A stretch of DNA of 64,000 nt from an uncultured Candidatus Saccharibacteria bacterium (GTDB lineage: Bacteria > Patescibacteriota > Dojkabacteria > J137): the NCBI GenBank assembly GCA_964607415.1, contig CAZSKK010000003.1, positions 3,693 through 67,692 of the forward strand, in the 5' to 3' direction. Positions 19,290-54,513 of the stretch are shown piece after piece (positions within the stretch are counted from its first letter, which is position 1; each line of letters opens with the position of its first letter). The position numbers and the translations under genes were made by a program. The notes beneath the pieces are model-generated. The model searched no databases, had not been told where the DNA came from, and saw only the letters and a program-made list of their open reading frames with translations.

Positions 19290-22200
19290 TTAATTTGAGC
19301 TACAAACATATTTAGAATCAGGTGTTCCGTCAGAAACCCCATCATCATTAGTATCATTTACAATTTTACTATATTCCCTAAATACTAACTGACAGTAATC
19401 TCCAACTTCTCCACCATACTCCCAAATACAATCGCCATATAGAGAATGTCTTCCATAATAAGGTGCAGAAGCTATGTGCAAAGCACTAATCTTATAGTTA
19501 GGATTGAACAATCTTTCTCGTAGATTAATAATTGACTGCGTACCCGGATATTCATCCAACAAATCTTCCAATTGTTCGATAGTAATATCATAAAATCCAT
19601 TTTCGCCAGTCGCATCGTAAACTCTTTGCGTCCACTGTTCTTCAGTAAATACTTCCCCCTTTGGAATACCCAAATAATTTCTGCCATCTCTAGCAAGTTT
19701 AGTTCCACCTGCACACAAAGCGACTCCCAAAATTACTGCATCATCATGACTTAGGTCTTCCACAGTATTAAATGGTAACCCTAGTCCTTTAACACAGTAT
19801 AGAATTAAGTCGGCATCTGTTCTCATAATTCCGTCCCAACCTATTTGAGTAAATTGCATTGGACCTCTAGTTCCATATCCATTATCAGTCACATAGCTAA
19901 CATATGTCGGATCACCAGGTCTTTTATCTGCTTCTCCACGACTTTCTACATCTAAAATAGCTCGAATAACGTTACCAGTGATTCCAGGATAGTCTCTGCC
20001 TATTAAATCAGCAACTTCATCCAAAAGACATTGAATACTTGAAAAATTTTTATCCCCATCAACAATTGGATTACCATTTTCGTCGTATTTACATTCAGAA
20101 TTCAATTTAGCAGAAATAGTACTTGTCTGGGTTGTATCTTGGCTTGTCTTTTTACCATCAGTTACTGTTGTCCATTCAGGAGCTTCGCAAGCCTTGTCAT
20201 AACGACATGAATTAGTACTTCCACAGCCCAAAACATCTCCATACAAAACATACGGATTAATCTTTTGTCCATTGTAGGATGCATTAGTATGCAAGTGGGT
20301 TCCTTGGATACAAGGTGTCCACAAACCGTTAGGAACCTCATAAAGCCTAATAGTGTTTCCGTTAGCAGTCATAAATTTACCAGGCTTATCATAAGTAGTA
20401 ACATAATCAGACATAATCGAAGATGTTATTCTTAAGTGTAAAAATACATACTTAACACCACTCTTGCCTTGATAAATTATGTACCCTCCATTTGATCTCA
20501 TACCTAAGAGCTCTTCATCACTCATATTATCAATGATCTCAACTAAAGCAGCTCCATTAGATAGCTTTGAATTTAATTCCTTTAGTTGGCCCCTTATTGT
20601 TTCCGGTTTTGTACCAAGATTAGGACAAAAGTTGTTTTGACCTGCAACAATTTGTACAATTTCGCCAGCTTCAGGAGCATATAGATCACTATTGCCTCTT
20701 ACAGCACCTTTTGTATAAAGATCAAACGATAGTGAAGGCCTTGGATCTTGAGTTGTACTACAATAGTGTGTAAATCCACCTAAAGGCCCTTGATAACAAG
20801 CATCATTTTGGAGAGGACATGATGTTGCTCCAAAATCTAGCTTAGTTACATCACCATTAATTTGTTCTTCTGGTGGAACTTTGCATGAGTTGTCGCACAA
20901 TCCTTCTATTGTATAACCTTTACTGCATAAAAATTCACCCAGTTCATCTTTAAATCTATTATCCGACATATCTGTAATGCACGTTAACTCATCGTCAGGC
21001 TTTATCAAAGCTTCCGGGTTTAAAGCAAGGTCTGCCGAACTTGAAGCACCAACATTTCCTTGTGCCCCCAAAACAACATCACTTCTAACAAAACAACTAT
21101 TCCCAAAATTATCAAAGTCTTGATATCCCAAACCAGTTGCACCTTGCATATCGCAGCCTAAAGCTTTTGTAAATGATGCTATATTATTTTTATATTGACC
21201 TTCTTCGACTTCCATGTGCAAGTGAGGACCTTGTATTCCAATACATCCACCTTGGTTAGGATCTGTAACATCTAGATCTGAAAGCTTTGAAACTCTGGTA
21301 ATCTTTTGACCTGCTTTATAGGTATTGCCCTCCTGAACACTGTCATCAACCAGAACATGTAAGAACATCAGTTTTACTGTCTTACCATCAATCTTGCCTT
21401 GATAAAATATTCTTCCTCCAGCTTTTGTTCCATTATTACAATAGTTAAACTCATCTGCATTTTGAACTTCTACAATCTCACCATCAAAAGGAGCGATAAC
21501 GTTTTGATCTCCGCCATTGTAATTTGTATTAAATAAATCTACTGCATTTAATCCTTCATGCGATTCAACTCCAGGCCCTTTACCACAAAGTCCTGCTTCT
21601 ACAGGACAATAATACTGTGTGCTTGGTTGGTTTGACGAATCGGTGGTAGAATTTTGTACAGGATTTTCGTCAAATTTCCATTGCTCAACCTGATCACAAG
21701 TTACCACAGGAAAGCTTGTAGTAACACTTGCAAGCCCTGTTTCCAATACCTTTCTTCTTGTATTATTTGCTGCATTATTTTTACCATAGTTTGGATTATC
21801 AGTAAGTTTTTCTGCGCTAAAGGTAGAATCTTTTGTATAAGCAACGCTCATTTCTTGTAGTACATCTAGATATCCCAGCCAATCATAATATTGATATTCT
21901 GTTCTAGTTGGATTGGTTTTTGCTAGTAAAAACTCGTTGTTATAGATGTTGCTTGGAAGTTCGCAGGAATCTAAGTCTTGTGCATATTGATTTGGAATTA
22001 CATCTGGCAAGCCTCTATCATTTGATTCGGACAATGGCCTATTTGCATCTCGAACTTTTGAAGTTACCTCTGTTTTCCATGCAAGGTTTTCCCTAAAAAC
22101 CATCTTTAAACCTCTTTCACTCATTTGTGTTTGAAGCCTTTGGTACATTCTATACAAAGAATCATAGACTCCCGGAATATCATAATTTGGATTATTAGGC

Positions 22201-25200
22201 CACTTATCAGTTTTAATATAAATTTCATCTCCTCCTTGTTGGTTATATTTTAAACACTCTGCATATTCTGCTGGGATTGAACATTCACCCTTTTTAATTT
22301 TATCTAAAGTACAAAAACTAAAAGTTGATAAGTAACTTATATTAGGGCAGTAGAAAGAAATTCCATTAGCAATAATCGATTTATTTTCTATCTGGCAATC
22401 TAGCGCTGCTGCCTGATATTGTTCAGAATTAACTCCTCCAAGCTGACCTGGATAATCAACGCCAGCTAATACATCTTTTTCATTTTTCCTGTTTGCATAT
22501 TTTCTACAAACTTCGCCACCTGTTCCCGACCAAACTTGAGTTTTGTCCTGTACTTGAACTTCTGGCCCAATAATATAGTTTGATCTATTTTCAAGATAAA
22601 TAGTATCTTCACCACAAGTAGTTTTTCTATATTTAGAAGGAGTATTTTGTGGTAAATAATCTCTAAGCCCATCGATGATATCTGAAGCAACACCTTTATC
22701 CAAGCAAAAACCCAATGAGTCTATGCACAAAGCTTTTTCATCTTGCACAGTTTTACTAACATCATTCCAGGGTAAAGGATATATTGAACTACCTCCTTTT
22801 TGAGAAAAATTCTCTTCCCAGAAAGTTGTACCAAAAGGGTTGTCTTTAGAATTTAGTTCTTTAATTGTTTCCAATGTACTACTTCCTGGATTTAGGCTTG
22901 CCTTATCAGGAAGCCTTGCAAATTCCTGTGATGCTAGTATTAATTCTGCAGAACAGTTAATTGCTGATCCCAACCAAGGCATAGGATATGCTTTAGAAAG
23001 ATCTATGCTTGCTAATTGAGAGTCTATGTTATTAAAGTTGACTATACTTGCAGTGCCGCTAGAAATCAATGAATACAGACCTTCGTTTATTGGCTTATAG
23101 TTATCAATATGTACACCGTCGGAATATAAAAATGAATCTTTGTTTGATGCATTGTAGCTTACATTCAAATATTTAATAGAACTGCCGTTATCTAAGCTTT
23201 TCAAAAACTCATTAAAAGAATTGACTTTACTGTCAGAACAAAGTCCATCAGATCTCAATGGGATTGGAACAAAAATTATACTTTGGTTCTCAAGATTAGA
23301 AATTATATTATTGATATCTAACTTGAATCCTTCCAAATCAAAAGAGGGGCAGTCATTGGTACCTAACCAAATTACTACTGTTGTATTTGATGCAAGATCG
23401 GAAGGAATCGGATAACTGGCATCTGCAAAACCTCTTGCACTTGATCCAGCAATGGCAGCACTTCTGTTTACAGTTGTAAACCACTCTTGCGGTAGAAAAT
23501 CACCTCGTTCTGGACCAGGGGCCCCTTGGCTATCACTTATTACTGCTATAGGATTTGATAAGGCGGTTTTACCTGTATACAAGTTATCGATTCTAGAACT
23601 AGTAGTTACGCCTGTTGTTAGAATTCCAGCAAATTGATTTAATGCATCCACTTCTGAGTTCGCATAATACGATGCAACTTCTGCGCAAATTGGTGTAAAA
23701 GGCAAGGCTGATGTCCCTGCAGAACTATTACTTCCAAACTGTTTTATAGGTAGAGCAACTTCTACTGTTCCAATCATTTGCGTTGTGCAGTTATTATTTT
23801 CACACTTAACCTTTAATGCCGCTCCATTATCAATATTAAAAGTTCTGCTCTCCAGCTCTTCCCCACATGCACTTGCAGTTGAGCTTGTTGAATATTCCTT
23901 AGGATAAATACATGAGTCAAAATTACAATTTGCCCATGAAAAATCTTTAAATCCTGGCTTTTTCTGTACAGGACAATCACCAATTATTAGAGCATGCTCA
24001 CTTGGAGTCATTCCGTGCCTATCTTTCCAAACCAATTCATCATTTAAAGCTACACTCCCATTTTCGTTCAAAAACGATCTGAAAAATAATACACCTTCAA
24101 CATTGCCATCCTGACAGAATTTTGCAAAACTTTGAGTTTGTTCTTCAAGTGCTGCTTGTCTTCTTCCTTGATAGTTTTCAAAAAATGCACCAAACTCTGA
24201 AATAATAACAGGAATATCTTTTCCGTCAGCGTATTCTTTTAAAGTGTTTTCACCGTTTGTTTCAGCTCCGTTTACATAAAAATCATACGCACTAACACCC
24301 ACAGAAAGTTCATATGTGTTTCCTAGAAGGTAATCGTAGTATTCAGGATTAAAAATCCTACCACTATACAAATACTCCTTAACATCATTGTTAACAGCAT
24401 TCGTTAAGTTAAAAATTGCAGGAGCTAACAGCATATGCCCTGCATTAATTCCACTTGGACGTAGTCCCTGAAGTGCTTTGGCAACTTGATCGGTTTCATT
24501 CAAAAGAGCATCATAATTTAATCCTCCCACAAAGCCATTCATCTCAAGAGCTGGCTCTCCAGAGCCAGGTTCGTTTGGTCCAATTACCCCTAAAAAATAC
24601 TCATCCGGAGATGTCAATGAATGTACTTTTGTATAAAAATCAATAATTTGGTTTTGATCTTGAAAACTACAAAAACCAGCAGCACAAAGTCTTATTATTG
24701 GAAGCATTCCTAAAGCATTTGTTTGTTTAATAAACTGTGCAGCTGCTTCCTGAGAAGTTGGAGAGTTAGCTGTGACCATTCCTAGGTTATAACTCATTCC
24801 TAAATCAGAAGCATATTTCAAAATCTTTTCATTAAGCTCTGAATCGTATCCACCATCTAATACAATTGCCGTATTTGCACCTCCCATATTTCCTTCTAGC
24901 GATGGAAGTGCTAGTCTACTTAATTGTGAAGCAGTTTTAATTTCTGCTTTATTAGGGTCTATGATTTGACATCTATCATTTGATTCTAAAAGATTTCCTC
25001 CTCCGTCTAGTTGTTTTGCGAGTTTGCCAGTATTCAAACCAAAACCAGTAACTTGTGCCAGTACATCGCTAATAACTCCAAACGGTCTTACTCCTTTCCA
25101 GGTTGAAATATCGTTAATAAGTCCTATTGTTGCAAATATGAAAACGAAGCCGAGAAGGACTACAATTGCCGTTGGTGGACGAGAATTTGAATGATTGTTG

Positions 25201-25229
25201 TTTTTTGCGTTGGAAAGATTGTGATTCAA
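19290..25229 (-). CDS. Giant multidomain cell-wall hydrolase (1979 aa). It has an N-terminal TM anchor, a GH clan-A TIM-barrel glycosidase-like domain, an SGNH/GDSL esterase-like domain, two M23 metallopeptidase domains and a C-terminal lysozyme-like/SLT domain.
   Basis: The TM is IVVLLGFVFIFATIGLI. The GH-A acid/base and nucleophile motifs are VIGPNEPGSG and VIISEFGAF. The SGNH blocks are VIWLGTNDC and SDGVHIDN. The two M23 motif sets are CIGIQGPHLHMEVEEGQY and CIQGTHLHTNASYNGQKINPY. The SLT-like motif is ILDVESRGE...GTRGPMQFTQ. Confidence 0.75.
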   Translation of the reverse strand: MNHNLSNAKNNNHSNSRPPTAIVVLLGFVFIFATIGLINDISTWKGVRPFGVISDVLAQVTGFGLNTGKLAKQLDGGGNLLESNDRCQIIDPNKAEIKTASQLSRLALPSLEGNMGGANTAIVLDGGYDSELNEKILKYASDLGMSYNLGMVTANSPTSQEAAAQFIKQTNALGMLPIIRLCAAGFCSFQDQNQIIDFYTKVHSLTSPDEYFLGVIGPNEPGSGEPALEMNGFVGGLNYDALLNETDQVAKALQGLRPSGINAGHMLLAPAIFNLTNAVNNDVKEYLYSGRIFNPEYYDYLLGNTYELSVGVSAYDFYVNGAETNGENTLKEYADGKDIPVIISEFGAFFENYQGRRQAALEEQTQSFAKFCQDGNVEGVLFFRSFLNENGSVALNDELVWKDRHGMTPSEHALIIGDCPVQKKPGFKDFSWANCNFDSCIYPKEYSTSSTASACGEELESRTFNIDNGAALKVKCENNNCTTQMIGTVEVALPIKQFGSNSSAGTSALPFTPICAEVASYYANSEVDALNQFAGILTTGVTTSSRIDNLYTGKTALSNPIAVISDSQGAPGPERGDFLPQEWFTTVNRSAAIAGSSARGFADASYPIPSDLASNTTVVIWLGTNDCPSFDLEGFKLDINNIISNLENQSIIFVPIPLRSDGLCSDSKVNSFNEFLKSLDNGSSIKYLNVSYNASNKDSFLYSDGVHIDNYKPINEGLYSLISSGTASIVNFNNIDSQLASIDLSKAYPMPWLGSAINCSAELILASQEFARLPDKASLNPGSSTLETIKELNSKDNPFGTTFWEENFSQKGGSSIYPLPWNDVSKTVQDEKALCIDSLGFCLDKGVASDIIDGLRDYLPQNTPSKYRKTTCGEDTIYLENRSNYIIGPEVQVQDKTQVWSGTGGEVCRKYANRKNEKDVLAGVDYPGQLGGVNSEQYQAAALDCQIENKSIIANGISFYCPNISYLSTFSFCTLDKIKKGECSIPAEYAECLKYNQQGGDEIYIKTDKWPNNPNYDIPGVYDSLYRMYQRLQTQMSERGLKMVFRENLAWKTEVTSKVRDANRPLSESNDRGLPDVIPNQYAQDLDSCELPSNIYNNEFLLAKTNPTRTEYQYYDWLGYLDVLQEMSVAYTKDSTFSAEKLTDNPNYGKNNAANNTRRKVLETGLASVTTSFPVVTCDQVEQWKFDENPVQNSTTDSSNQPSTQYYCPVEAGLCGKGPGVESHEGLNAVDLFNTNYNGGDQNVIAPFDGEIVEVQNADEFNYCNNGTKAGGRIFYQGKIDGKTVKLMFLHVLVDDSVQEGNTYKAGQKITRVSKLSDLDVTDPNQGGCIGIQGPHLHMEVEEGQYKNNIASFTKALGCDMQGATGLGYQDFDNFGNSCFVRSDVVLGAQGNVGASSSADLALNPEALIKPDDELTCITDMSDNRFKDELGEFLCSKGYTIEGLCDNSCKVPPEEQINGDVTKLDFGATSCPLQNDACYQGPLGGFTHYCSTTQDPRPSLSFDLYTKGAVRGNSDLYAPEAGEIVQIVAGQNNFCPNLGTKPETIRGQLKELNSKLSNGAALVEIIDNMSDEELLGMRSNGGYIIYQGKSGVKYVFLHLRITSSIMSDYVTTYDKPGKFMTANGNTIRLYEVPNGLWTPCIQGTHLHTNASYNGQKINPYVLYGDVLGCGSTNSCRYDKACEAPEWTTVTDGKKTSQDTTQTSTISAKLNSECKYDENGNPIVDGDKNFSSIQCLLDEVADLIGRDYPGITGNVIRAILDVESRGEADKRPGDPTYVSYVTDNGYGTRGPMQFTQIGWDGIMRTDADLILYCVKGLGLPFNTVEDLSHDDAVILGVALCAGGTKLARDGRNYLGIPKGEVFTEEQWTQRVYDATGENGFYDITIEQLEDLLDEYPGTQSIINLRERLFNPNYKISALHIASAPYYGRHSLYGDCIWEYGGEVGDYCQLVFREYSKIVNDTNDDGVSDGTPDSKYVCSSN

Positions 25230-28314: not shown

Positions 28315-28334
28315 TTTTTAATAATGATGATTCT

Positions 28335-28356
28335 GAAGCCGCGACGTCGCGGCTTC
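28335..28356. terminator. GC-rich hairpin between convergent clpC and rmuC (GAAGCCGCGACGTCGCGGCTTC)
   Basis: It has a perfect 11-bp stem. It is flanked by TGATGA and TCATCA and by T-rich sequence. The stem sequence is shared with the hairpin at 44975-45002. Confidence 0.55.
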
Positions 28357-28367
28357 ATCATTTCATT

Positions 28368-29556: not shown

Positions 29557-29910
29557 TTAGGTTTTCATTTTGCTTATAAATTTTGAAAGCATTTTTAGGA
29601 TCTCTGTTATTTTATCATGTAATTGTGTGTATTGTTCCTGATTTATAAACTCCAAATCTTTAGCAAGTTCAATCAGGCAATCTGTCTCACTAGCCGAACC
29701 CATAGCGATTTGTAAAAAACGATTAAAATCTTTGTCTGAACCTCGACAGCACCCTTCCGCAATGTTTGCTTCAATTGAAATAGTTGCTCGTGTTAGTTGT
29801 GAAGTTAATATGTATTGTTGAGATCTTGGGAATTGCTCAACAACCTTGAATATTTCTTTCGTTAAATCGTGAGATTTATACCAAACTTGTAAATTTCTAA
29901 AATTCTTCAT
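29557..29910 (-). CDS. Four-helix-bundle protein (TIGR02436 family, formerly called the 23S rRNA intervening-sequence protein)
   Basis: The N-terminal signature is FRNLQVWYKSHDLTKEIFKVVEQFPRSQQYILTSQLTRATISIEANIAEG. The length is 117 aa. Confidence 0.8.
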   Translation of the reverse strand: MKNFRNLQVWYKSHDLTKEIFKVVEQFPRSQQYILTSQLTRATISIEANIAEGCCRGSDKDFNRFLQIAMGSASETDCLIELAKDLEFINQEQYTQLHDKITEILKMLSKFISKMKT

Positions 29911-30767: not shown

Positions 30768-31015
30768 AATCACTAATGACCCCAAAATATCTTTGCGAGC
30801 AAAACGAAGCAAACTCTTTAAAGTAAAGTATTAATTAATGAGATTGCTTATTGCTTTGCCCTGATAAATCGTAACTCGCAGTGACTCAAGCTCATAAACA
30901 CGTGAACACTAAAACTCGCAAACCCATTAACTCCCCCCAACACGAAAACCCTTAAATGATGTATAATTTCAGTCAGCAGATAGCAAATAGACCTCACCCG
31001 ATTCGCTACGCTCAT

Positions 31016-31070
31016 CACCCTCTCCTTAAGGAGAGGGAAATCCGAGCTTGCAAGGATGGGGTGAGGTATT
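31016..31070. repeat. GC-rich palindromic repeat, family A (CCCTCTCCTTAAGGAGAGGG ... TCCGAGCTTG ... GGTGAGG). This is the intergenic copy upstream of lepA.
   Basis: It is about 85% identical to 31378-31443 inside lepA. Related hairpins lie at 33176-33191, 43303-43328 and 51402-51420. Confidence 0.7.
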
Positions 31071-31164
31071 ACTAAATCTTAAATCCCTGCCTGCGTGCCG
31101 AGCACTGCGACAGGCAGGTTGAATCATCAATCTTAATTCTGAACGATCAACAATTGTCTAACTT

Positions 31165-33126
31165 ATGAACCAAACAAGAATCCGCAACTTTTGCATAATC
31201 GCCCATATCGACCATGGTAAATCAACCTTGGCCGATAGACTTATTGAATATACCGGTGCATTATCAACCAGAGAAATGAAAGATAGAGTTTTGGATACAT
31301 TAGAACTTGAACAAGAAAGAGGCATTACAATTAAACTACAAACCGCAAGGTTGGAATACAAGTATAGCCCTACTCATAAAGGAGGCCCTCTCCTTGCAGG
31401 AGAGGGTGGCTCCGAGCTTGTCGAGGAGCCGGGTGAGGCTACTTACCACCTAAACCTTATCGATACCCCTGGCCATGTAGACTTTAGCTACGAAGTTTCA
31501 AGATCAGTTGCAGCTTCTGAGGGAGCATTAATACTTATTGATGCATCGCAAGGAATTCAAGCACAAACTTTGACTACTGTTTACAAAGCAATGGAGTATG
31601 ACTTAAAACTTATTCCAGTTTTAAATAAAGTTGATCTTCCCAATGCAGAAGTTGATAGAGTACGCCAGGAAGTTATGGAAACATTTGGTTTTAAAGAAGA
31701 AGAAATCATTTTAGCTTCAGGGAAATCTGGAATTGGTGTCAAAGATATTTTGGACGCAATCGTAGAAAGAGTTCCAGCGCCAAATAAACATAATTCCTTG
31801 ATATACACTTACGATCAGGATGAAACCATTACAAAAGGCTTAATTTTTGATGCTTTTTATCACGAGTATAAAGGCGTTGTAGCTTTAACAAAAATTGTTT
31901 CAGGAAATATTAAAAAAGGCCAAAAGCTTTATTTAACTGGAACCAACAAGCTTGTTGATCCTATTGAAATTGGTTATCTTTCACCAAAAATGAAAGAAAC
32001 AAACGCAATCTTTGAAGGAGAAGTAGGCTATATTGCAACAGGGCTAAAAAGCATTGGTGATGTGCATACTGGAGATACAATCACTCTTGCTAAGCCAGAC
32101 GGTAGTCATAAAAAAATTAAGCCTTTAGAAGGCTATCAACCACCCAAGCCTATGGTTTACGCAAGTCTTTATCCTGTTGAAGCTAACGATTATCCCCAAT
32201 TTAAAGAAGCTTTGGAAAAATTGTCTTTAAACGATGCGGCGCTCACTTATCAAAAAGAATATTCTGCAGCTTTGGGAACTGGATATGTTTGCGGTTTTTT
32301 GGGCTTACTTCATTTGGAGATAACACAAGATAGATTAGAGCGAGAATTTGGAATAAATTTAATTAGCACAACGCCAACAGTTGAGTTTCAAATAAAGCTT
32401 ACAACCAAAGATTATTCAAAAGTGCCAAACATAAACGTTGCAAATATCGATGAACAAACTAATATTGCAACAATAAGAACTGCAGCAGAATTTCCAGATG
32501 GAAGTCTTTTTTCTGAAGTTTATGAACCTTGGGTGAAAATTGAAATTGTAACACCAGAAGAATACATAGGAGGAATTATGGAGCTTGCACAAAAAAATCG
32601 AGGAATTTATAGAACTATGAGCTTTTTATCTAAAAACTCTACTGGTCAAAAACATGCAATAATCACTTATGAAATTCCTACAGTTGAAATGATTGTGAAT
32701 TTTTTTGATAAATTAAAATCAATTAGTCACGGTTACGCATCAATGGACTATTCATTTTTAGAATATAGAAAAGGTGACATTGCCAAAGTTTCAATAATGG
32801 TAAATTCTGAACCTGTAGAGGCGCTATCTTTTATTTGCCACAAGGAAAGTGCAGTTAGAAGAGGAAAACTTATGGTAGAAAAACTACAGGAAATCATTCC
32901 AAGACAACAATTTAAGATTCCAATTCAAGCTGCAATTGGAGGACAAATTATTGCCCGTAAAGACATAAACGCATTTAAAAAAGATGTTACATCCAAGCTT
33001 TACGGTGGTGATGTAACAAGAAAAATGAAACTTTTAGAAAAGCAAAAGAAAGGTAAGAAAAAATTAAAGATGATTGGAAACGTTGAAATTCCAAAGGAGG
33101 CGTTCTTAGCCGCACTTAAAGACTAA
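31165..33126 (+). CDS. lepA: Elongation factor 4 (LepA). It carries an in-frame insertion of about 21 aa derived from a repeat element.
   Basis: The G1 and G3 motifs are IIAHIDHGKSTL and DTPGHVDFSYEVSRS. The full LepA C-terminal domain is present. The insertion SPTHKGGPLLAGEGGSELVEEPGEA at 31378-31443 is GC-rich and homologous to the intergenic repeat. Confidence 0.9.
   Translation: MNQTRIRNFCIIAHIDHGKSTLADRLIEYTGALSTREMKDRVLDTLELEQERGITIKLQTARLEYKYSPTHKGGPLLAGEGGSELVEEPGEATYHLNLIDTPGHVDFSYEVSRSVAASEGALILIDASQGIQAQTLTTVYKAMEYDLKLIPVLNKVDLPNAEVDRVRQEVMETFGFKEEEIILASGKSGIGVKDILDAIVERVPAPNKHNSLIYTYDQDETITKGLIFDAFYHEYKGVVALTKIVSGNIKKGQKLYLTGTNKLVDPIEIGYLSPKMKETNAIFEGEVGYIATGLKSIGDVHTGDTITLAKPDGSHKKIKPLEGYQPPKPMVYASLYPVEANDYPQFKEALEKLSLNDAALTYQKEYSAALGTGYVCGFLGLLHLEITQDRLEREFGINLISTTPTVEFQIKLTTKDYSKVPNINVANIDEQTNIATIRTAAEFPDGSLFSEVYEPWVKIEIVTPEEYIGGIMELAQKNRGIYRTMSFLSKNSTGQKHAIITYEIPTVEMIVNFFDKLKSISHGYASMDYSFLEYRKGDIAKVSIMVNSEPVEALSFICHKESAVRRGKLMVEKLQEIIPRQQFKIPIQAAIGGQIIARKDINAFKKDVTSKLYGGDVTRKMKLLEKQKKGKKKLKMIGNVEIPKEAFLAALKD
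31378..31443. repeat. Family A palindromic repeat inserted in frame within the lepA coding sequence
   Basis: The sequence is ggcCCTCTCCTTgcAGGAGAGGGtggcTCCGAGCTTGtcgAGGAgccgGGTGAGG. The local GC is far above that of the gene. The reading frame is preserved. Confidence 0.7.
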
Positions 33127-33194
33127 CACGTAAGACGTTAGATGTATGACGTTTGACGAATCAAATTAATTATTTCCCCTCTTGAGAGGGGAAG

Positions 33195-33215
33195 AAAAAG
33201 CATACCATGCTTTTT
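33195..33215 (+). terminator. Rho-independent terminator after lepA (AAAAAGCAT-ACC-ATGCTTTTT). It is preceded by the family A hairpin CCCCTCTTGAGAGGGG at 33176-33191.
   Basis: It has a 9-bp stem including an A/T run, which makes it bidirectional-capable. It lies about 70 nt after the lepA stop. Confidence 0.55.
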
Positions 33216-33273
33216 AAGGGGAGTGACATAAGAATAGGAAATTCGATTACACAAAACTCATTACTCACAACTC

Positions 33274-35582: not shown

Positions 35583-35747
35583 AAATCATTCTAAAGCTAA
35601 TCGCAGCACTCAGCAACCCCGAGACAGCATATTATGCTGTCGAGTGAAGCTACATATATTTTGACGCTACACTCAAATGCACAATGTGCGTTTTAGGAGA
35701 AGGCGCGTAGCACCTAGGTGGGTTATTCGTGCTAAAATTACTTTTGT

Positions 35748-36647
35748 ATGTCAAAGATTTCACTTCCCAAAAACTATATGGGCTTCGTTTACCAAATAAT
35801 ACGCCCTACAGGCCTTTTAGATCCTATTGTGGAGATTAGGCCAACAATGCCAGAAAACCTAGATAAATTACAGGCTGAACTTAGAAAAAACGGCTACGAA
35901 GACATGCCAGCATATAAGGCAACAAGTTGGATAAATCCTCAAATTCCCAATCTTATAATTGAAATCGAAGCAAATATCAAAAAAGGCGAAAGAGTTTTGG
36001 TTACTACCCTAACTAAAAGAATGGCGGAAGAACTTTCGGATTATCTTTCAGAACGGCATATTTCTAGTAAATACATCCATTCGGACATAGATACAATTGA
36101 ACGTGTTGAAATCTTAAGAGATTTAAGAAAAGGTCTTTATGATGTTGTAGTAGGAATTAATCTTTTAAGAGAAGGATTAGATTTGCCCGAAGTGTCCTTA
36201 ATTGCAATTTTGGATGCAGACAAAGAAGGTTTTTTAAGATCCAGTACTAGTTTAATTCAAACTATCGGAAGAGCAGCAAGGCACGTAAACGGAAGAGTTA
36301 TTATGTATGCTGATAAAGTGACAGATTCAATGAAATTTGCAATTGATGAAACCAGAAGAAGAAGAGCGGTTCAGGAGAAATACAATACCGATCATGGTAT
36401 TAATCCTAAATCTATTATCAAAGAAATTAAAGATCAGCTTGAAAGGACTAAGAAAGAAGAGCACGAAGAAGAAGAGGTTAAAAACTGGCACAAAAAAGCA
36501 GAAAGTTTTAAGGCTATGACTAAAAAAGATCAGAAAAAATTTATTAAAGAATTAAAATTTGAAATGCAGATTTTGGCGGATTTGATGGAATTTGAAAAAG
36601 CTGCTGAAATTAGAGATATTATTGTGGAGCTGGAAGGGAAGGGTTAG
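35748..36647 (+). pseudogene. uvrB: uvrB C-terminal fragment (helicase domain 2 plus UVR domain only; about 400 N-terminal residues missing)
   Basis: It aligns colinearly with E. coli UvrB from RPTGLLDP onward. The matching motifs are [63 protein letters not shown] and QTIGRAARH, plus the C-terminal UVR coiled coil. The upstream 240 bp are repeat-filled and non-coding. Confidence 0.7.
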
Positions 36648-38762: not shown

Positions 38763-39842
38763 GTGAAAAACGAAACAAAAAAACAAAAAGTATTTGTAGC
38801 GTTATCAGGCGGAGTAGATTCTGCTGTGTCTGCAGCGCTATTAGTAGAGCAGGGCTATGACGTAACAGGAGTTTATATGAAAAACTGGTCTGGCGATGAA
38901 TTTGGAATTCAAGCAGACTGTCCATGGGAAACTGATCAAGCCGATGCAGAGGCAGTTTGTAAACACCTAGGGATCCCATTTAGATCTTTTAATTTTGAAA
39001 AGCAATATAGGCAAAAAGTTGTAGAATACTTTTTTAGCGAATACGAAAAAGGCAGAACTCCAAATCCTGATGTAATGTGCAACAAAGAAATTAAATTCAA
39101 ATTATTTTTAGATAAAGCAATTATCGAGGGTGCAGATTTAATTGCAACTGGGCATTACGCAAGACACACCGGTGACGAACTACACATTGGCCTTGATCCA
39201 AACAAAAATCAAGTCTATTTTCTTTACAATATAACCCAAGAGCAATTGAGCAAAACCTTGTTTCCTATTGGACATTTAACTAAACCTGAAGTTAGAGAAC
39301 TTGCTAAAAAATATAATCTGCCCAATGCAAATAAACCTGATAGTCAAGGGATTTGCTTTATTGGAGAAATTAATGTTTTAAAATTCTTAATGTCTAGAAT
39401 TCCAGAAAAAAAAGGAGAAATACAAGATTTTGATACAAAAAAAGTTGTAGGTGAACATAAAGGTGTTTACTTTTACACAATTGGTCAACGTGAAGGAATT
39501 GGAGTTGGAGGTCAGAGTGAGCCTTATTATGTTGTGGATAAAGATTTCGAAAAAAACATTCTCTATGTGGGACATGGGCACAACCACCCGCAGATGTTCA
39601 AAAAAGAAGTTATACTTGAAACTATTCATTGGATAAACCAAGAACCTAAAGATTTTGATAACTTGCAGGCAGTTGTGAGGTATAGGCAGAAACCTTTAAA
39701 CGGTAAATTTGAATTACGAATTACTAATTACGAAAAAACACCTGTATTCATTTTTGATGAGCCGGTTAGAGCTGCAACAAGTGGACAGAGTTTAGTAATT
39801 TTTGATGGAGAGGTGGTGCTTGGAGGAGGAATTATCAAATAA
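38763..39842 (+). CDS. mnmA: tRNA-specific 2-thiouridylase MnmA
   Basis: The PP-loop is VFVALSGGVDSAVSA. Motifs RTPNPDVMCNKEIKF and DSQGICFIGE are present. The protein is colinear with E. coli MnmA. Confidence 0.9.
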   Translation: MKNETKKQKVFVALSGGVDSAVSAALLVEQGYDVTGVYMKNWSGDEFGIQADCPWETDQADAEAVCKHLGIPFRSFNFEKQYRQKVVEYFFSEYEKGRTPNPDVMCNKEIKFKLFLDKAIIEGADLIATGHYARHTGDELHIGLDPNKNQVYFLYNITQEQLSKTLFPIGHLTKPEVRELAKKYNLPNANKPDSQGICFIGEINVLKFLMSRIPEKKGEIQDFDTKKVVGEHKGVYFYTIGQREGIGVGGQSEPYYVVDKDFEKNILYVGHGHNHPQMFKKEVILETIHWINQEPKDFDNLQAVVRYRQKPLNGKFELRITNYEKTPVFIFDEPVRAATSGQSLVIFDGEVVLGGGIIK

Positions 39843-39903
39843 CCACTCAGGCTAAAGCCACCTCCACTTTAATTAAAGTGGAGGAAGGGAGGGTTATTTC
39901 ATT
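39841..39903. repeat. MITE-like repeat, family B (AACC..TCC ... CCTCCACTTTAATTAAAGTGGAGG ... GGGAGGGTTATT)
   Basis: The same architecture is found at 54437-54513 and 60317-60380, with a longer variant at 58631-58757. It has terminal inverted repeats (AACCCCTCC / GGAGGGGTT) and a central perfect hairpin. Confidence 0.65.
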
Positions 39904-43273: not shown

Positions 43274-43411
43274 ATAAGACAAAGGTTGTAAAGATAGATT
43301 ATGTTTCCTCTCCCTTTGGGAGAGGATTAAGGTGAGGGGTTCGAAAAAAGCACATTGTGCATTTGAGTGCAGCTAAAATAGCTCCATTCGACTGCATAAT
43401 ATGCAATCTCA

Positions 43412-43444
43412 GGTGTTGTGGCCAAGTGGTAAGGCGAGAGTCTG
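43412..43444 (+). other. tRNA 5'-half-like fragment (acceptor 5' strand, D-arm and anticodon-stem 5' strand). It matches tRNA-Cys at 31 of 33 positions.
   Basis: The sequence GGTGTTGTGGCCAAGTGGTAAGGCGAGAGTCTG compares with GGTGACGTGGCCAAGTGGTAAGGCGAGAGTCTG of the intact gene. It ends after the first anticodon nucleotide. Confidence 0.6.
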
Positions 43445-43514
43445 ACCCGAAAATCATGTTAAGCTTGCGAAACATATGATTTTCGTGGATCCCAAACTTT
43501 ATGAATTACAAAAA

Positions 43515-43585
43515 GGTGACGTGGCCAAGTGGTAAGGCGAGAGTCTGCAAAACTCTTACTCGCGGGTTCGATTCCCGCCGTCACC
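43515..43585 (+). tRNA. tRNA-Cys (anticodon GCA)
   Basis: A 71-nt cloverleaf is present, with acceptor GGTGACG/CGTCACC and anticodon stem AGAGT/ACTCT around loop CTGCAAA. The T-arm is GCGGG-TTCGATT-CCCGC. No CCA is encoded. It is flanked by the perfect 14-bp inverted repeat ATGAATTACAAAAA / TTTTTGTAATTCAT. Confidence 0.85.
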
Positions 43586-43674
43586 TTTTTGTAATTCATA
43601 TTTCTTTGTGGGGACAAAACTATTATCATACATACAGAATAATTTTCATTCTCAACATGACATTTAGTCATGTT

Positions 43675-43703: not shown

Positions 43704-43835
43704 AGGTTTTTGGTTTAGCTCACTCGACAACATAATATGTTGTCTCAGGTGCAACTCCCACCGTGTCCTATTACTGCAAAACAGCTTTTTTTATATATTC
43801 GACTGCATAATATGCAGTCTCAACTCTCAGCATTC

Positions 43836-44960
43836 TCATTGCAGTTCAAACTCAAAACTCTTAAAGATCTCCCCATTAATTTGTATTTCAAGTTTGTGCG
43901 TTCCAGGATACAAAGTTCGTGTAGTCATAAACTGTTTTAGCATATGTTTCTTTTGAATTGTTGCAGTTTCACCTTCGTTAAGATTTAAAGCTTTAATTTT
44001 AAAAACCTTTTTGTTATTTAGCTTCCCAGTCTTATTCTGAAAGTAGAGTATATAGTCAACTACTAAATTAACTTCTGATTTAGCATAGATATCAAAGCTA
44101 AACTGCAAGTACGAATTCATTTTAACTTTGTTTGTTGCCGTAAAATTTTGAATTGCTATATCCGGTTTGTGGCTAAAACCCAGCAATTCCATTGCCCCCA
44201 AATCGCCTTGTTTTATAAGCGTTCTTAAAGAATGTTTTATAATGTAATCCATCTCTTTAGGATCTTGCTTTTTAGAATCCCTCCACTTAATCAAAGTTTT
44301 AATTACCAACTCTGGATCAACCTTGGAAATATCGTTCATGTGATTTGCCACCGAGCGTGTTACAAATCTAGCCGAATCGGAGAACAAATTATCTAAAATT
44401 GTAATTGGAGTAGAGTGGCTCATATTAATTTTTTGAGCCCAGGGAAGCTTAGGTCTTGTTCCTTCACTACAAAGCCTCCTTACGTGGTAGTTTGAATCTT
44501 TGCTCCATATCAAAAGTGTTTCTAAAGTCTCCTTTGGATATTTATTAATGAAATACCTGATTGCATCTTCAACCGAAAAACGCATTGTAATTTCCCTTAG
44601 GACATTTAACGACAAAGTTAGATTGTTCCTATCAAGCCCATATTTAGCTACAAACTCCGCATATGGTGCATAAATAAAATCTCCAAAGTCGTTATCAGTT
44701 AAACTGGGATCATTTGGCTCCGGAAGTGCCTTAAGTATAACTGCAACTGCATCACTATAATTGTTTGGCAAATATTTCTTAAGATTTTCTGCAATCCACG
44801 AAATTCTGGCTTTTAACTCAAGCTCTGGGAATTTTATCATCACCTCATCTATAAAACTTTCTTCGGCAAATTCCGGATAAACGTTTTTTACTTCACTAGC
44901 CAGTTGGCTAACTTTATTTTTATTAAAAAGAAAATCTTTTAAAGAAAATTTTTCAGCCAT
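43836..44960 (-). CDS. DNA alkylation repair (AlkD/AlkC-like HEAT-repeat glycosylase) family protein with an extra C-terminal domain
   Basis: It has an all-helical repeat architecture. The SNYHVRRLCSEGTRPKLPWAQ block resembles the DNA_alkylation family. Confidence is moderate. Confidence 0.5.
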   Translation of the reverse strand: MAEKFSLKDFLFNKNKVSQLASEVKNVYPEFAEESFIDEVMIKFPELELKARISWIAENLKKYLPNNYSDAVAVILKALPEPNDPSLTDNDFGDFIYAPYAEFVAKYGLDRNNLTLSLNVLREITMRFSVEDAIRYFINKYPKETLETLLIWSKDSNYHVRRLCSEGTRPKLPWAQKINMSHSTPITILDNLFSDSARFVTRSVANHMNDISKVDPELVIKTLIKWRDSKKQDPKEMDYIIKHSLRTLIKQGDLGAMELLGFSHKPDIAIQNFTATNKVKMNSYLQFSFDIYAKSEVNLVVDYILYFQNKTGKLNNKKVFKIKALNLNEGETATIQKKHMLKQFMTTRTLYPGTHKLEIQINGEIFKSFEFELQ

Positions 44961-44974
44961 AAGTTTTTAAATAT

Positions 44975-45002
44975 GAAGCCGCGACTTCGAAGTCGCGGCT
45001 TC
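44975..45002 (-). terminator. GC-rich hairpin terminator after the 524-aa acidic protein gene (GAAGCCGCGACTTCGAAGTCGCGGCTTC)
   Basis: The 11-bp stem is identical in sequence to the stem at 28335-28356. It is followed by T/A-rich sequence on the minus strand. Confidence 0.5.
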
Positions 45003-45046
45003 ATAAAATGTTCTACAAAATAAAGCCTGAATACAATAATTTAAGC

Positions 45047-46797: not shown

Positions 46798-48363
46798 TTA
46801 TACCAAAAGATCTCGACCCGTCATATCTGCGGGAGGCTCCACTCCCATAAGTTTTAATATAGTAGGTGCAACGTCTGCTAAACCACCTACTGGGAGTTCT
46901 CTACCATCAAGGCCTTTTTTTATTACAATGAAAGGAACCTGATTGGTTGAGTGCTTTGTATCAGGTTCGCCTGTTTGAACATTAATCATTTCTTCAGCAT
47001 TCCCATGATCTGCCGTAATAACTACCGCTCCGTCCTTTTTTAAAACTTCTTGTACAATTCTACCTACACAATCGTCACAAACCTCCATTGATTTTATTGT
47101 TGCATCTAAAACTCCTGTATGTGCAACCATATCGGGTCCTGCAAAGTTTACAACTATAAAATCAAATTCATCCTTTTCTATTTTCTCGATCAGAACATCT
47201 GTAACCCACTTTTGGCTCATTTCTGGTTTTAAATCATATGTTGCAACGTCTTTAGGCGATGGAATTTCAAGCCAAACTTCACCTGGCCAAATATTTGGAT
47301 TACCACCATTAAAAAAATAAGTAACATGAGGAAATTTTTCTGACTCCGAAATTCGTAGCTGCTTCAGTCCTTTATCTGAAAGTACCTTTCCTAATGGATC
47401 CGTAATCTCTTCTGGAGGAAAAGCTTTTCTAATTGGAAAACCATCCTCGTATTCTGTAAAACCAACAAAATACAAATTTTTAATCTTCGTCCTCTCAAAT
47501 CCTTTAAAATTGTCATCTTCAAAAGCTTTAGTTATTTGAGTTGCTCTATCTGCTCTAAAATTGAAGAAAATAACACAATCTCCTTCCTTGATTACTGCAG
47601 GTTTCTCTTTTCCAGTAACTACAACAAGGGGTTCCATATATTCATCAGTAACGTTTTTCTTATACATCTCCTCTAAAGTTTTCTTCCAGCTTTTTGTTTC
47701 CGTTCCAATTCCACTTGTTAGTAAATCATAAGCTCTTTTTGTTTTTTCCCACCTTCTATCTCTATCCATGGCATAAGTTCTTCCTATGATTGTTGCAATT
47801 CTACCTACTCTTTTTTGAATACAATATGATTCTAATTTTTCTAAAAGATCAGATCCTGCTGTGGGTGAAGAATCCCTTCCATCAGTAAAACAATGAATAA
47901 AAAGACTATCTGGATCAATTTTTTGCCTTTTAGCAACTTCCATTAGGGCAACTAAATGCTCAAAAGATGAATGCACAACTCCATCCCCGACTAAGCCCAT
48001 AAAGTGAATGTTACCTTTATTCTTCTTTGCATGCTCAATGCCATCTATTATTACCTGATTTGAATAAAAGCCATCGTTTTTTATAGCATTATCTATTCTG
48101 GGAAGATCTTGAAAAATTACTTTCCCAGCACCTATGGTCATATGTCCTACCTCAGAATTACCATCTGCATCTGATGGTAAACCAACATGTAATCCAGCAG
48201 CCTCTAAATATGTATGCGGGTAACTGGGCCACAATTTATCAAGATTTTTTGTGTCTGCAAGAGTAACAGCATTACCAGGTCCAGGCTGTGCAACGCCAAC
48301 CCCATCCATAGAAATTAATACAACAGGTTTTGGTCTTTTAAAAAAATCCGCCATTATAATCAA
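46798..48363 (-). CDS. gpmI: 2,3-bisphosphoglycerate-independent phosphoglycerate mutase
   Basis: The N-terminus VVLISMDGVG...SEVGHMTIGAG carries the iPGM catalytic Ser motif. Also present are DGRDSSP, VITADHGNAE and a metal-binding C-terminal half. Confidence 0.9.
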   Translation of the reverse strand: MIIMADFFKRPKPVVLISMDGVGVAQPGPGNAVTLADTKNLDKLWPSYPHTYLEAAGLHVGLPSDADGNSEVGHMTIGAGKVIFQDLPRIDNAIKNDGFYSNQVIIDGIEHAKKNKGNIHFMGLVGDGVVHSSFEHLVALMEVAKRQKIDPDSLFIHCFTDGRDSSPTAGSDLLEKLESYCIQKRVGRIATIIGRTYAMDRDRRWEKTKRAYDLLTSGIGTETKSWKKTLEEMYKKNVTDEYMEPLVVVTGKEKPAVIKEGDCVIFFNFRADRATQITKAFEDDNFKGFERTKIKNLYFVGFTEYEDGFPIRKAFPPEEITDPLGKVLSDKGLKQLRISESEKFPHVTYFFNGGNPNIWPGEVWLEIPSPKDVATYDLKPEMSQKWVTDVLIEKIEKDEFDFIVVNFAGPDMVAHTGVLDATIKSMEVCDDCVGRIVQEVLKKDGAVVITADHGNAEEMINVQTGEPDTKHSTNQVPFIVIKKGLDGRELPVGGLADVAPTILKLMGVEPPADMTGRDLLV

Positions 48364-54439: not shown

Positions 54440-54513
54440 CCCCTCCTGGTGCTACGCACCTTCCTCCCCTTTAATTAAAGGGGAGGTGGCTCGGAGAGCC
54501 GGAGGGGTTATTA
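54437..54513. repeat. MITE-like repeat, family B (TAACCCCTCC ... CCTCCCCTTTAATTAAAGGGGAGG ... GGAGGGGTTATTA)
   Basis: It starts inside the msrA stop codon. It has terminal inverted repeats and a central perfect hairpin. Confidence 0.7.

Follow-up and report, generated by a model that had tools for sequence, protein, structure and literature searches.

GC-rich hairpin repeats related to Whalefall-1 RNA in a Candidatus Dojkabacteria genome, with in-frame copies in lepA and tgt

Results

Repeats and host genes in the window

The DNA analyzed here, called the window, is a stretch of 64 kb from an AT-rich candidate-phylum bacterium, Candidatus Dojkabacteria (CPR). Another 7 kb was reached via nrdR, and the genome sequence covered amounts to about 71 kb. 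Whalefall-1 RNA corresponds to Rfam family RF01762, which has a curated gathering cut-off of 37 bits. R1 denotes a covariance model made from the published seed only and R2 a second-round model. The following features were assigned:

7036–7112, no strand assigned: degenerate A-type copy (BLAST, Smith-Waterman; R1 E 0.092)
30990–31068, no strand assigned: element A, intergenic, two Whalefall-1-like units on opposite strands (31016–31068, plus; 30990–31039, minus) with the central palindrome CCCTCTCCTTAAGGAGAGGG common to both
31165–33126, plus: lepA (elongation factor 4), host gene, 653 aa (Pfam domains, homologues, PDB alignment, AF2 model)
31365–31443, plus: element F in lepA, about 78 nt or 26 codons, SPTHKGGPLLAGEGGSELVEEPGEAT; its Whalefall-1-like unit is at 31384–31440
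33172–33227, plus: Whalefall-1-like unit in the lepA-prfB spacer (R1 21.0 bits, E 8.9e-5)
35612–35735, plus: element G, M1/M2 double-hairpin module with GGTGGGTTATT terminus, upstream of the uvrB C-terminal ORF
39843–39900, minus: element D, B-type (BLAST to B and C, fold; R2 E 0.2)
43304–43339, plus: short Whalefall-1-like unit, Y/R hairpin and GGTGAGGGG tail (R1 E 0.053)
43712–43822, plus: two M hairpins (43722–43747 and 43797–43822) downstream of tRNA-Cys
48375–48431, plus: best Whalefall-1-like unit (Rfam 33.1 bits, whole-window E 8.2e-5; R1 30.2 bits)
48471–48512, plus: truncated Whalefall-1-like unit, second hairpin and GGGTGAGG tail (Rfam 20.9 bits; R1 E 0.036)
48519–48556, plus: M2-type hairpin
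50819–51982, minus: tgt (queuine tRNA-ribosyltransferase), host gene (homologues, PDB alignment)
51389–51482, minus: in-frame insert in tgt, about HGSSSDGGKKTARMHNMHSRPKGEGNLRP
54437–54512, no strand assigned: element B (fold −49 kcal/mol, z −7.2; R2 E 1.2e-3 on the plus and 7.7e-3 on the minus strand)
58633–58762, plus: element E (BLAST to C, 43345–43413 and 35618–35694; fold)
60319–60382, no strand assigned: element C, B-type (BLAST 88.7% to B; R2 E 4.8e-3)

Sequence comparison indicates that this genome harbors a family of GC-rich hairpin repeats, located mostly between genes, which are relatives of Whalefall-1 RNA. Perfect hairpins of 8 bp or more numbered 15 in the window compared to 0–2 in shuffled sequences, and 14 of them were found within the 15% of intergenic sequence. 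The spacers are filled by a wider modular set of nested palindromes, including TAACCCCTCC…GGAGGGGTTA elements and the GCATAATATGC hairpin family.

Element A has an outer stem of ACCTCACCC/GGGTGAGGT and a predicted RNA fold of −43.6 kcal/mol (z −6.4). Its two units scored 23.0 and 25.2 bits with RF01762 and E 7.9e-5 and 4.9e-5 with R1. In element B, three hairpins sit inside the outer stem TAACCCCTCC/GGAGGGGTTA, forming a four-way junction. Element E has the termini of element C and a central M1/M2 double-hairpin module, GCATATTATGC and GCACAATGTGC. The short unit at 43304–43339 abuts an M2/M1 double hairpin at 43341–43413 (repeat families D3, D4 and I2-I3). Within the M hairpin family, 97.9% of positions were paired and 5 of 8 pairs showed compensatory changes. 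For the Y/R hairpins, MAFFT gave an alignment in the wrong register, which was left out of the pair counts.

Several copies touch gene ends. The stop codons of msrA and mnmA lie inside the terminus of element B and the AATAA terminus of element D, respectively, and the C-terminal tail of a DUF998 protein, its final ~22 residues, is encoded by element N. The copy at 7036–7112 is located just upstream of, or overlaps, the ATG at 7082 of a 2182-aa M23/SH3/C39 protein (Pfam).

Some other assignments were rejected. The four-way-junction elements are not tRNA-like, as ARAGORN and Rfam found tRNA-Cys only and the loops have 3–4 nt. A bAvd-like gene adjoins, and mutagenesis of the DGR type was considered; the copies differ by indels and there was no reverse transcriptase. 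A possible extra insert in a Mur ligase (60028–60070) contained no convincing palindrome.

An element related to the intergenic copy lies in frame within lepA

The first-pass annotation had placed GC-rich repeats upstream of lepA and within lepA and tgt. The sequences were found at these positions, and the presence of copies in both genes was confirmed. Local alignment of element A with the lepA copy gave 49 identical columns out of 62, with 8 gap columns and 5 mismatches (79% identity with gaps, 91% without gaps). The similarity held in a formal test: the Smith-Waterman score was 46, and shuffled sequences had a mean of 14.0 (sd 2.2, maximum 33). This indicates common ancestry of element A and the element inside lepA. 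The exact pattern with a 2-nt loop proposed earlier fitted the lepA copy and missed the intergenic one, because the loop of the intergenic hairpin is one base shorter.

Element F consists of a Y/R hairpin, a GGCTCC…GGAGCC hairpin with a CUUG-type loop and a GGGTGAGG tail, and has a calculated RNA fold of −40.3 kcal/mol. Its GC content is 0.58, compared to 0.36 for the gene. It reached 24.5 bits with RF01762 (E 3.9e-4 in a search of 531 nt, 0.047 over the whole window) and 18.2 bits (E 7.7e-4) with R1. Both of these independent covariance models thus score the insert as a member of the family.

When LepA was aligned with the solved structures 2ywe and 3cb4/3deg, 21 residues had no counterpart, in agreement with the length given in the first-pass annotation. 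Compared to the closest homologue (P0002/L085, 77% identity), in which the site is empty, LepA has 26 additional residues (78 nt). The gene is otherwise intact and encodes 653 aa; typical LepA proteins have ~590–600 aa, as judged from contigs matching the universal patterns IIAHIDHG and IDTPGHVD across 80 unrelated phyla. The insert sits between the G-domain beta-strands 61–67 and 92–99 and has a pLDDT below 50 in the AF2 model, which predicts a disordered loop. An example of a peptide spanning it is GGPLLAGEGGSELVEEPGEATYHLNLIDTPGHVDFSYEVSR. The identical 653-aa LepA was encoded on five contigs from at least four independent sequencing runs, so the insert is no assembly artefact. Runs in which this organism occurs include SRR29850212, SRR7051045, SRR22443709 and SRR20083768.

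The tgt insert carries a hairpin of a second family

Alignment of Tgt with solved Tgt chains revealed ~22–24 additional residues, located between positions 171 and 194 of the query, close to the ~23 aa first proposed. The PDB alignments and the AF2 model placed the insertion points in inter-strand or surface loops, as had been expected. The tgt insert carries one GCATAATATGC hairpin, an M-family hairpin at 51418–51439, and aligns collinearly with element E over the latter's left half. Two hairpins had originally been described in this insert. The GAATGCATATTATGCATTC hairpin is one of a 12-copy family; an intergenic copy in the related locus L089 matches its core exactly over 22 nt. The supposed 'CCCTCTCC hairpin' was rejected, as it does not fold as a hairpin and was not detected by any covariance model. 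This stretch resembles an element terminus (TACCCTCTCCTTT vs TAACCCCTCCTTT), a similarity that is not significant on its own.

The Tgt protein of L089 is 88% identical and the flanks of its insert are ~90% identical in nucleotides. The insert at the same site is completely different and cannot be aligned with that of the source tgt. Similarity between the L089 tgt insert and L089 intergenic sequence was not significant. A lineage-specific loop, with orthologs carrying the same residues in AT-rich codons, was not observed: the closest LepA orthologue is empty and others carry different inserts. From these comparisons, the insertions in lepA and tgt are recent and lineage-specific. The first-pass annotation had neither the kinship to Whalefall-1, nor the presence of several modular families of nested palindromes, nor the wide length variation of the host loops.

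Relationship to Whalefall-1 RNA

The RF01762 scores in the window (33.1 bits for 48375–48431, then 25.2, 24.5 for the lepA copy, 23.0 and 20.9) lie below the gathering cut-off, with whole-window E-values of 8e-5 to 0.69. Together, RF01762 and R1 identified nine units with E<0.1 in 74.7 kb, among them the lepA copy; R2 added the elements B, C and D. Besides A and the lepA copy, at least seven further units matching RF01762 are present in ~71 kb. The order of a Y/R hairpin, a CUUG hairpin and a GGGUGAGG tail matches the RF01762 architecture, and the GGGUGAGG tail is identical to many published seed sequences. In the nine local Whalefall-like units, 95.6% of cells were paired and 14 of 16 pairs showed compensatory changes. 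The loop of the second hairpin is G-CUUG-C in copy A, G-CUUG-U in the lepA copy F and a related CUUUG in 48375; other copies have GAA, ACC, GGA and similar loops.

Weinberg et al. (2010, PMC2864571) reported Whalefall-1 RNA from whale-fall metagenomes alone; they classed it as a non-coding sRNA and assigned it no host. Its whale-fall contigs include wf2_Contig264, 5380, 5173, 42, 4944 and 3569. Like the published RNA, the Dojkabacteria units have two hairpins and, after them, a purine-rich SD-like tail, a first stem of the CUCUCC/GGAGAG type, a second loop that is often CUUG, and AT-rich flanks. Both occur in several copies per organism and as inverted pairs, which the published seeds also form on one contig. 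The paired Dojkabacteria units share a central palindrome, whereas published pairs have a spacer of ~35–50 nt. The Dojkabacteria host genome and a copy inside coding sequence also differ from the published description.

This kinship raises the question of whether the units are functional structured RNA genes or cis-elements (a Whalefall-1 sRNA, an mRNA stabiliser, a processing site or a translational SD/anti-SD hairpin), the lepA copy being an incidental or exapted duplicate. Weinberg et al. graded the motif as certainly RNA from its covariation and tetraloop (PMC2864571). The strong covariation of the local units and their CUUG-type loops would be equally expected for a functional RNA. To form its outer stem, the lepA copy relies on G·U pairs, which are workable only in RNA. 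By our own reading, a TTGACA…TATATC-like spacer is found just upstream of each whale-fall seed unit. The palindromic first hairpin of 48375–48431 has its purine arm, on the minus strand, at Shine-Dalgarno distance from the iPGM start (48363), and the same applies to the ORF start at 7082. However, the tail is at Shine-Dalgarno distance from no gene by window coordinates, as the original authors also saw (PMC2864571). One copy lies in frame within coding sequence, another forms a protein tail, and the symmetric double units read alike on both strands. Moreover, their position is not conserved in relatives and the copies are numerous enough to break assemblies. We therefore regard functional RNA as an unlikely main explanation, though it can coexist with duplicative spread.

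Length variation of the LepA and Tgt loops

Across Dojkabacteria, the LepA and Tgt loops contain from 0 to about 45–60 extra residues, and some orthologues hold GC-rich palindromes of another kind at these places. Both loops could be free of constraint and lengthen through slippage or low-complexity expansion, with one local duplication or gene-conversion event accounting for the similarity of the lepA insert to the copy 368 nt upstream. The copies that resemble each other most are indeed neighbours, and the LepA loop inserts of L087 (z −0.6) and L100 (z +1.1) are non-palindromic and of low complexity, showing that a loop can also grow without an element. Against a local duplication, the lepA copy is a mosaic: its hairpin 1, junction and tail are nearer to copy N, ~33 kb away, than to copy A. 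It also scores as a complete unit in models built without it. Also against this explanation, the hairpin core in tgt recurs over 22 nt between genes of another genome, and strong palindromes other than element F lie in the same LepA loop of L088 (z −5.7) and L098 (z −3.1). This explanation is improbable.

There is very little to recommend the view that the inserts stay untranslated through ribosome bypassing or removal at the RNA level: the lepA insert has a strong hairpin (−40 kcal/mol), is flanked by the Tyr codons TAT and TAC as possible take-off and landing codons, and is analogous to GC-rich mobile inserts in AT-rich mitochondrial genomes known in general, but both inserts are in frame and stop-free while typical copies are closed in 4–5 of 6 frames, a constraint expected only under translation, and the LepA hairpin would end one residue shorter than in any orthologue. 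Precedents for bypassing are T4 gene 60 and the mitochondrial 'byp' GC-clusters of Magnusiomyces.

Dispersal of the repeats

At least 12 loci in 71 kb carry short elements that end in inverted repeats, ACCTCACCC/GGGTGAGGT in A and (AA)TAACCCCTCC/GGAGGGGTTA(TT) in B, C, D and E. Among ~16 loci, there are two internal genic copies and one C-terminal tail. Full elements are free of stops in only 1–2 of the 6 frames; the two intact in-frame copies therefore represent a selected subset. Of the four Logan contigs with lepA, three stop at 33202, within the Whalefall-1-like unit 33172–33227, and one Logan contig starts at 60331, within element C.

Six related Dojkabacteria loci (80 kb) gave only two marginal matches, and the orthologous spacer of L089 lacks element B. 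A search of JGI metagenome contigs with the M-hairpin pattern gave five matches, of which only L092 was a real family member; the M-hairpin family is therefore not widespread in these metagenomes.

The element ends show TA or TAA on both sides, inseparable from an extension of the palindrome. The only empty site, in L085 lepA, has diverged too far for a duplication to be defined. All contigs of the source species were 100% identical and yielded no filled/empty strain pair. The ORFs of the window yielded no transposase, RAYT or reverse transcriptase, and those of the window and L096 together yielded no transposase family (only ~71 kb of genome). The alignments A3, A5 and A8 showed no conserved GTAG/CGTC tag, and no Y1 transposase was found.

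Discussion

Palindromic repeats inserted in frame in housekeeping genes, as first suggested, are supported by our analysis. We moderately favor a lineage-amplified family of MITE/RPE-like palindromic repeats, the in-frame copies of which are tolerated as loops. The Dojkabacteria genome would have amplified a modular family of GC-rich nested palindromes. The basic unit comprises a polypyrimidine/polypurine hairpin, a second hairpin often with a CUUG loop, and a purine-rich GGGUGAGG or GGAGGGG tail. Units often appear as back-to-back inverted pairs, so that the tails form terminal inverted repeats, and a whole element would fold as a multi-hairpin junction. We infer that the repeats are mobile and 'selfish': as non-autonomous, MITE/REPIN-like sequences they would spread as DNA, moved by an enzyme encoded outside the window. 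Because the genome is compact, elements would survive only in spacers, at gene ends and in rare tolerant coding sites. A tolerant coding site would require a length that is a multiple of three, a stop-free frame and a surface loop, and all three are found for the 78-nt copy in lepA as well as for the one in tgt. The in-frame copies would be translated as Gly/Pro/Glu-rich disordered loops. Most likely, the copies in lepA and tgt add disordered surface loops to the proteins, in an RPE-like manner.

Rickettsia palindromic elements (RPEs) offer a parallel. According to PMC10969869 (Ogata et al. 2000, 2002, cited therein), RPEs of Alphaproteobacteria are ~100–150 bp long and form ten families with conserved peptides. 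Many lie in frame in unrelated housekeeping genes, and the peptides are compatible with fold and function (PMC10969869). Both systems consist of palindromic repeats dispersed in a small AT-rich genome, and the repeats occur between genes and in frame at loops of unrelated conserved genes, here lepA and tgt. The Dojkabacteria elements differ from RPEs as described there by a size of ~55–130 nt, their GC-rich sequence and the CPR host. In view of the different phylum and size, homology is unlikely, and the resemblance is best taken as an analogy only.

Bacterial MITEs (Correia/NEMIS, ERIC, BOX, RUP, Nezha and others; PMC10969869) share with our elements the small size without coding capacity, the terminal inverted repeats, the stable fold and multiple copies near gene ends. 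Unlike for these MITEs (PMC10969869), neither a parent IS with matching termini nor a target-site duplication was identified in ~71 kb. REP/REPIN sequences, which are mobilised by RAYT (PMC3733652), are likewise short extragenic palindromes that are numerous in spacers and form longer hairpins as inverted pairs. In contrast to the Dojkabacteria repeats, REPs are essentially extragenic (PMC3733652), and the window showed neither their tag nor a RAYT gene. In the literature searched, no palindromic or MITE elements were found for Dojkabacteria or Patescibacteria.

GC-rich palindromic mobile inserts in an AT-rich genome, also within coding regions, are also known as the GC clusters or 'byps' of yeast mitochondria. 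Byps are organellar; the ribosome bypasses them and they may be out of frame, whereas the Dojkabacteria inserts preserve the frame and the ORF.

In-frame palindromic repeats in housekeeping genes are best documented in Rickettsia. The case in CPR/Patescibacteria suggests that in-frame colonisation by repeats recurs in small AT-rich genomes. The orphan family RF01762, a metagenomic 'sRNA' unassigned since 2010, gains a likely host lineage and a different interpretation as a dispersed repeat. In practice, such repeats fragment short-read assemblies, make proteins longer and can lead the annotation of RNA genes and ORFs astray in CPR metagenome-assembled genomes.

Our analysis offers a concrete explanation for the length-variable LepA and Tgt loops of Dojkabacteria. 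A more far-reaching idea, which we put forward as tentative, is that the Whalefall-1 'sRNA' is a mobile CPR palindromic element and that such elements repeatedly re-colonise the same surface loops in essential proteins, namely the LepA beta-hairpin and Tgt loops; insertion might be targeted to pre-existing hairpin DNA. If true, this re-colonisation would explain unrelated inserts at the same codon in near-identical orthologues, and the repeats would be a source of new loops for Dojkabacteria proteins in general.

The lepA Insert and Its Intergenic Counterpart

The GC content of the window was 32–38% throughout. The first-pass annotation had described a GC-rich palindromic element upstream of lepA (31016-31070; here element A, 30990-31068) that recurs within the gene (31378-31443; here element F, 31365-31443, + strand), which is an intact ORF of 653 aa (31165-33126). 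The sequences it quoted were found where it had placed them, and its estimate of about 85% identity between the two copies was fair. In a local alignment 49 of 62 columns were identical and 8 were gap columns. The alignment score of 46, compared to 14.0 ± 2.2 (maximum 33) in 2000 shuffles, demonstrated that this similarity is real. The literal pattern proposed for the element matched the lepA copy but not the intergenic copy, because the hairpin loop of the latter is one base shorter.

Five contigs, all 100% identical to the window, encode an identical LepA protein; they stem from at least four independent sequencing runs, which rules out that the insert is an assembly artefact. Between "…RLEYKY" and "TYHLNLIDTPGH" the protein has 21 residues without counterpart in solved LepA structures, and compared to the closest homologue (P0002 from locus L085, 77% identity), in which the site is empty, lepA of the window has 26 additional codons (78 nt). 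In the AlphaFold2 model the insert, residues 68-91, is a coil that separates the G-domain strands 61-67 and 92-99; pLDDT is <50 at residues 72-86. The named homologues of LepA and Tgt belong to Candidatus Dojkabacteria (CPR/Patescibacteria lineage).

Another GC-rich hairpin, CCTGCCTGCG…CGACAGGCAGG, is located at 31083-31122 between element A and the lepA start and has a single copy in the window. A gene about 1.1 kb upstream of element A (29557-29910) encodes a 117-aa protein with a four-helix bundle that belongs to the 23S rRNA intervening-sequence family and matches bAvd weakly; its surroundings showed neither a reverse transcriptase nor DGR repeats.

Relationship to Whalefall-1 RNA

An Rfam scan of the window at gathering thresholds found tRNA-Cys alone. 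When matches were selected by E-value, five matches to RF01762 (Whalefall-1 RNA) appeared, all below its gathering score of 37 bits.

Sub-threshold matches to RF01762 in the window
48375-48431, + strand, 33.1 bits (E 8e-5 for the whole window)
30990-31039, - strand, half of element A, 25.2 bits
31384-31440, + strand, lepA insert, 24.5 bits
31016-31068, + strand, half of element A, 23.0 bits
48471-48512, + strand, truncated unit, 20.9 bits

The sequence CACCCUCUCCUUAAGGAGAGGGAAAUCCGAGCUUGCAAGGAUGGGGUGAGGUA of the window is plainly of one design with Whalefall-1 seed sequences such as UCACCUCUCCUUUAGGAGAGGUCGAAACUACUAAUAGUAGUUUCGGGUGAGGAU. A covariance model (R1) built from the 15 published seed sequences and nothing else, and run with filters off, identified nine units at E<0.1 in the 74.7 kb formed by the window and locus L096, which adds 7 kb of the source genome to it. 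The score of the lepA copy was 18.2 bits (E 7.7e-4), E-values of the models built here being rough. In the nine units 95.6% of the cells were paired, and compensatory changes were present at 14 of 16 pairs. Element A consists of two opposite-strand Whalefall-1-like units with a common central palindrome, and its apparent outer stem ACCTCACCC/GGGTGAGGT results from this arrangement. The published seeds are likewise paired in inverted orientation on one contig. By its structure, the element is related to RF01762, with scores below the threshold of that family.

In the whale-fall contigs of the published alignment (PMC2864571, supplementary alignment), each unit is preceded by a spacer resembling TTGACA…(17 nt)…TATATC/TGTATC, which suggests a promoter between two divergent units. 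The compact elements of the window have no spacer of this type. In the searchable literature, Whalefall-1 is mentioned by the original paper alone (Weinberg et al. 2010).

A Wider Family of Modular Repeats

A second model, R2, was built from the nine local units; its scores are circular for these training sequences, and independent support comes from the Rfam scores, the R1 scores and the new R2 hits. These were elements B (54437-54512, E 1.2e-3), C (60319-60382, E 4.8e-3) and, weakly, D (39843-39900, E 0.2). All three have the termini (AA)TAACCCCTCC…GGAGGGGTTA(TT), which enclose two or three hairpins; element B folds with -49 kcal/mol (z -7.2). Element E (58633-58762) shares the termini of C and has at its centre a double-hairpin module (M1/M2) based on GCATATTATGC and GCACAATGTGC; further copies of this module are at 35612-35735 and 43341-43413. 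Of the twelve M hairpins compared, ten are from the window and one each from L089 and L092; they were 97.9% paired, and 5 of 8 pairs had compensatory changes.

Perfect hairpins with 8 bp or more and a stem GC of at least 0.4 numbered 15 in the window versus 0-2 in shuffles. Fourteen of them were located in the intergenic 15% of the sequence, the fifteenth being the lepA copy. At 33202 and 60331, contigs of independent short-read assemblies terminate within elements, as expected for multi-copy repeats. A structured palindromic repeat family has been amplified in this lineage.

AT-rich repeats of the CGAATTACGAATTAC type adjoin D (39705-39737) and B (54515-54547) in inverted orientation, and a similar string lies within the long LepA loop insert of L098, another Dojkabacteria contig. 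A different GC-rich hairpin, GAAGCCGCGAC…GTCGCGGCTTC, has two copies between gene ends (28334-28357, clpB/rmuC; 44972-45005, after 43836-44960), which look like terminators.

The tgt Insert

The tgt gene is on the minus strand (50819-51982/52021). Alignment of Tgt to solved chains gave two blocks with a break at residues 171-194, corresponding to about 22-24 extra residues. The insert carries CGAATGCATAATATGCATTCTC, which matches the M family exactly, and the same 22 nt recur in an intergenic copy of the related genome L089. The left half of element E, from the terminus to the M1 hairpin, aligned collinearly with the insert (score 40 versus 20.3 ± 3.7, maximum 36, in shuffles); the terminus-like stretch of the insert taken alone was not significant. 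The "CCCTCTCC-type hairpin" previously assigned to tgt showed no pairing and was detected by no model. Two family members are present in frame at loop positions of conserved genes, lepA and tgt.

Elements at Gene Ends and Starts

Element N (L096:4495-4580, about 4.8 kb past the window end) is Whalefall-1-like and located between the convergent nrdJ and DUF998 genes. It encodes the last ~22 residues of the DUF998 protein, past the Pfam domain (residues 10-177 of 203), and has apparently created this C-terminal tail; the nrdJ stop codon is also within the element. Elements B and D meet the 3' ends of genes exactly, by abutting or overlapping them: the AATAA terminus of B contains the msrA stop codon (54437-54439), and that of D contains the mnmA stop codon (39840-39842).

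The purine arm of a Y/R hairpin (GGAGAAGT; GGAAAGG) is at Shine-Dalgarno distance from two starts (regions 48360-48400 and 7060-7085), those of iPGM (minus strand, 48363) and of a 2182-aa ORF (7082). Pairing with the pyrimidine arm would sequester it; this arrangement could be translational control or coincidence. The 2182-aa ORF (7082-13630) has clear M23 peptidase, SH3, LGFP and C39-like domains, and a second giant ORF (19290-25229, 1979 aa) has a sub-threshold M23 match only; both probably encode proteins of the cell surface or for interaction with a host, of a kind typical for CPR episymbionts.

The tRNA-Cys gene (43514-43587) has a partial copy 100 nt upstream (43411-43444, 94% identity) that comprises its 5' half as far as the anticodon loop; both copies are flanked by M hairpins. 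Downstream (43712-43770) an M-like hairpin is joined to a degenerate version of the tRNA-Cys 3' half. The unrelated metagenome contig L092 (2650-2800) has the same layout: tRNA-Gln is followed by an M hairpin and then by a second copy of its T-arm and acceptor 3' half. An integrating element may have left this layout behind as a scar, or it may reflect tRNA-linked repeat formation.

Element G, which carries the M1/M2 module, is directly upstream of uvrB, represented in the window by just a 299-aa C-terminal ORF (35748-36647; Helicase_C, UvrB, UVR). L085 and L086 also have ORFs of 298-299 aa with UvrB C-terminal domains (a weak UVR hit was recorded for L085 only), so that a split or truncated UvrB seems to be conserved in this lineage.

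Comparison with Related Genomes

The analysis covered roughly 71 kb of the source genome and roughly 100 kb from its relatives. L089 encodes a Tgt with 88% protein identity and about 90% identity of the flanking DNA, and has an unalignable 69-nt sequence at the codon of the insert. Element B is missing from its orthologous spacer downstream of msrA. In six related Dojkabacteria loci totalling 80 kb, R2 gave only two marginal hits, versus about one unit per 6 kb in the source genome.

Among 120 homologues each, the LepA loop contained 0 to about 45 and the Tgt loop about 0 to about 60 extra residues. In homologues with DNA examined, the GC content of loop inserts was 0.42-0.69 versus 0.35-0.38 for the genes. 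The inserts of L088 (CACCCCCCTGTGAACCCCCCAGGGGGGTGTCAGGGGGGTG, z -5.7) and L098 (z -3.1) are strong, unrelated palindromes; those of L087 and L100 were non-palindromic. Based on these varied, GC-enriched and partly palindromic inserts, we conclude that the LepA and Tgt loops are permissive sites of fast turnover, with palindromic repeats a recurrent occupant among others.

Probable Spread and Possible Function of the Elements

The elements probably spread by duplication at the DNA level, in the manner of MITEs or REPINs. Among the ORFs examined in the window and L096, none encoded a transposase, RAYT or reverse transcriptase. Full elements are typically stop-free in just one or two of the six frames, and the only copies retained by selection would be those in spacers, at the ends of genes, or in frame within tolerant loops. 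Covariation within the units and their CUUG loops are compatible with a role at the RNA level, as are the G·U pairs that the lepA copy has in its outer stem and the SD-like purine arms beside the iPGM and 7082 start codons; such a role would not exclude duplicative spread, and the two can coexist. The lepA and tgt inserts are presumably translated, which is supported by the preserved frame and ORF, and the same preservation counts against bypassing of the inserts by the ribosome.

The phenomenon is functionally the same as for the Rickettsia palindromic elements and MITEs, but the phylum is new and the element is different; the searchable literature yielded no report of repeats of the palindromic or MITE-like type from Dojkabacteria or Patescibacteria. 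Our analysis adds a probable host lineage for Whalefall-1 and recasts it as a dispersed repeat.
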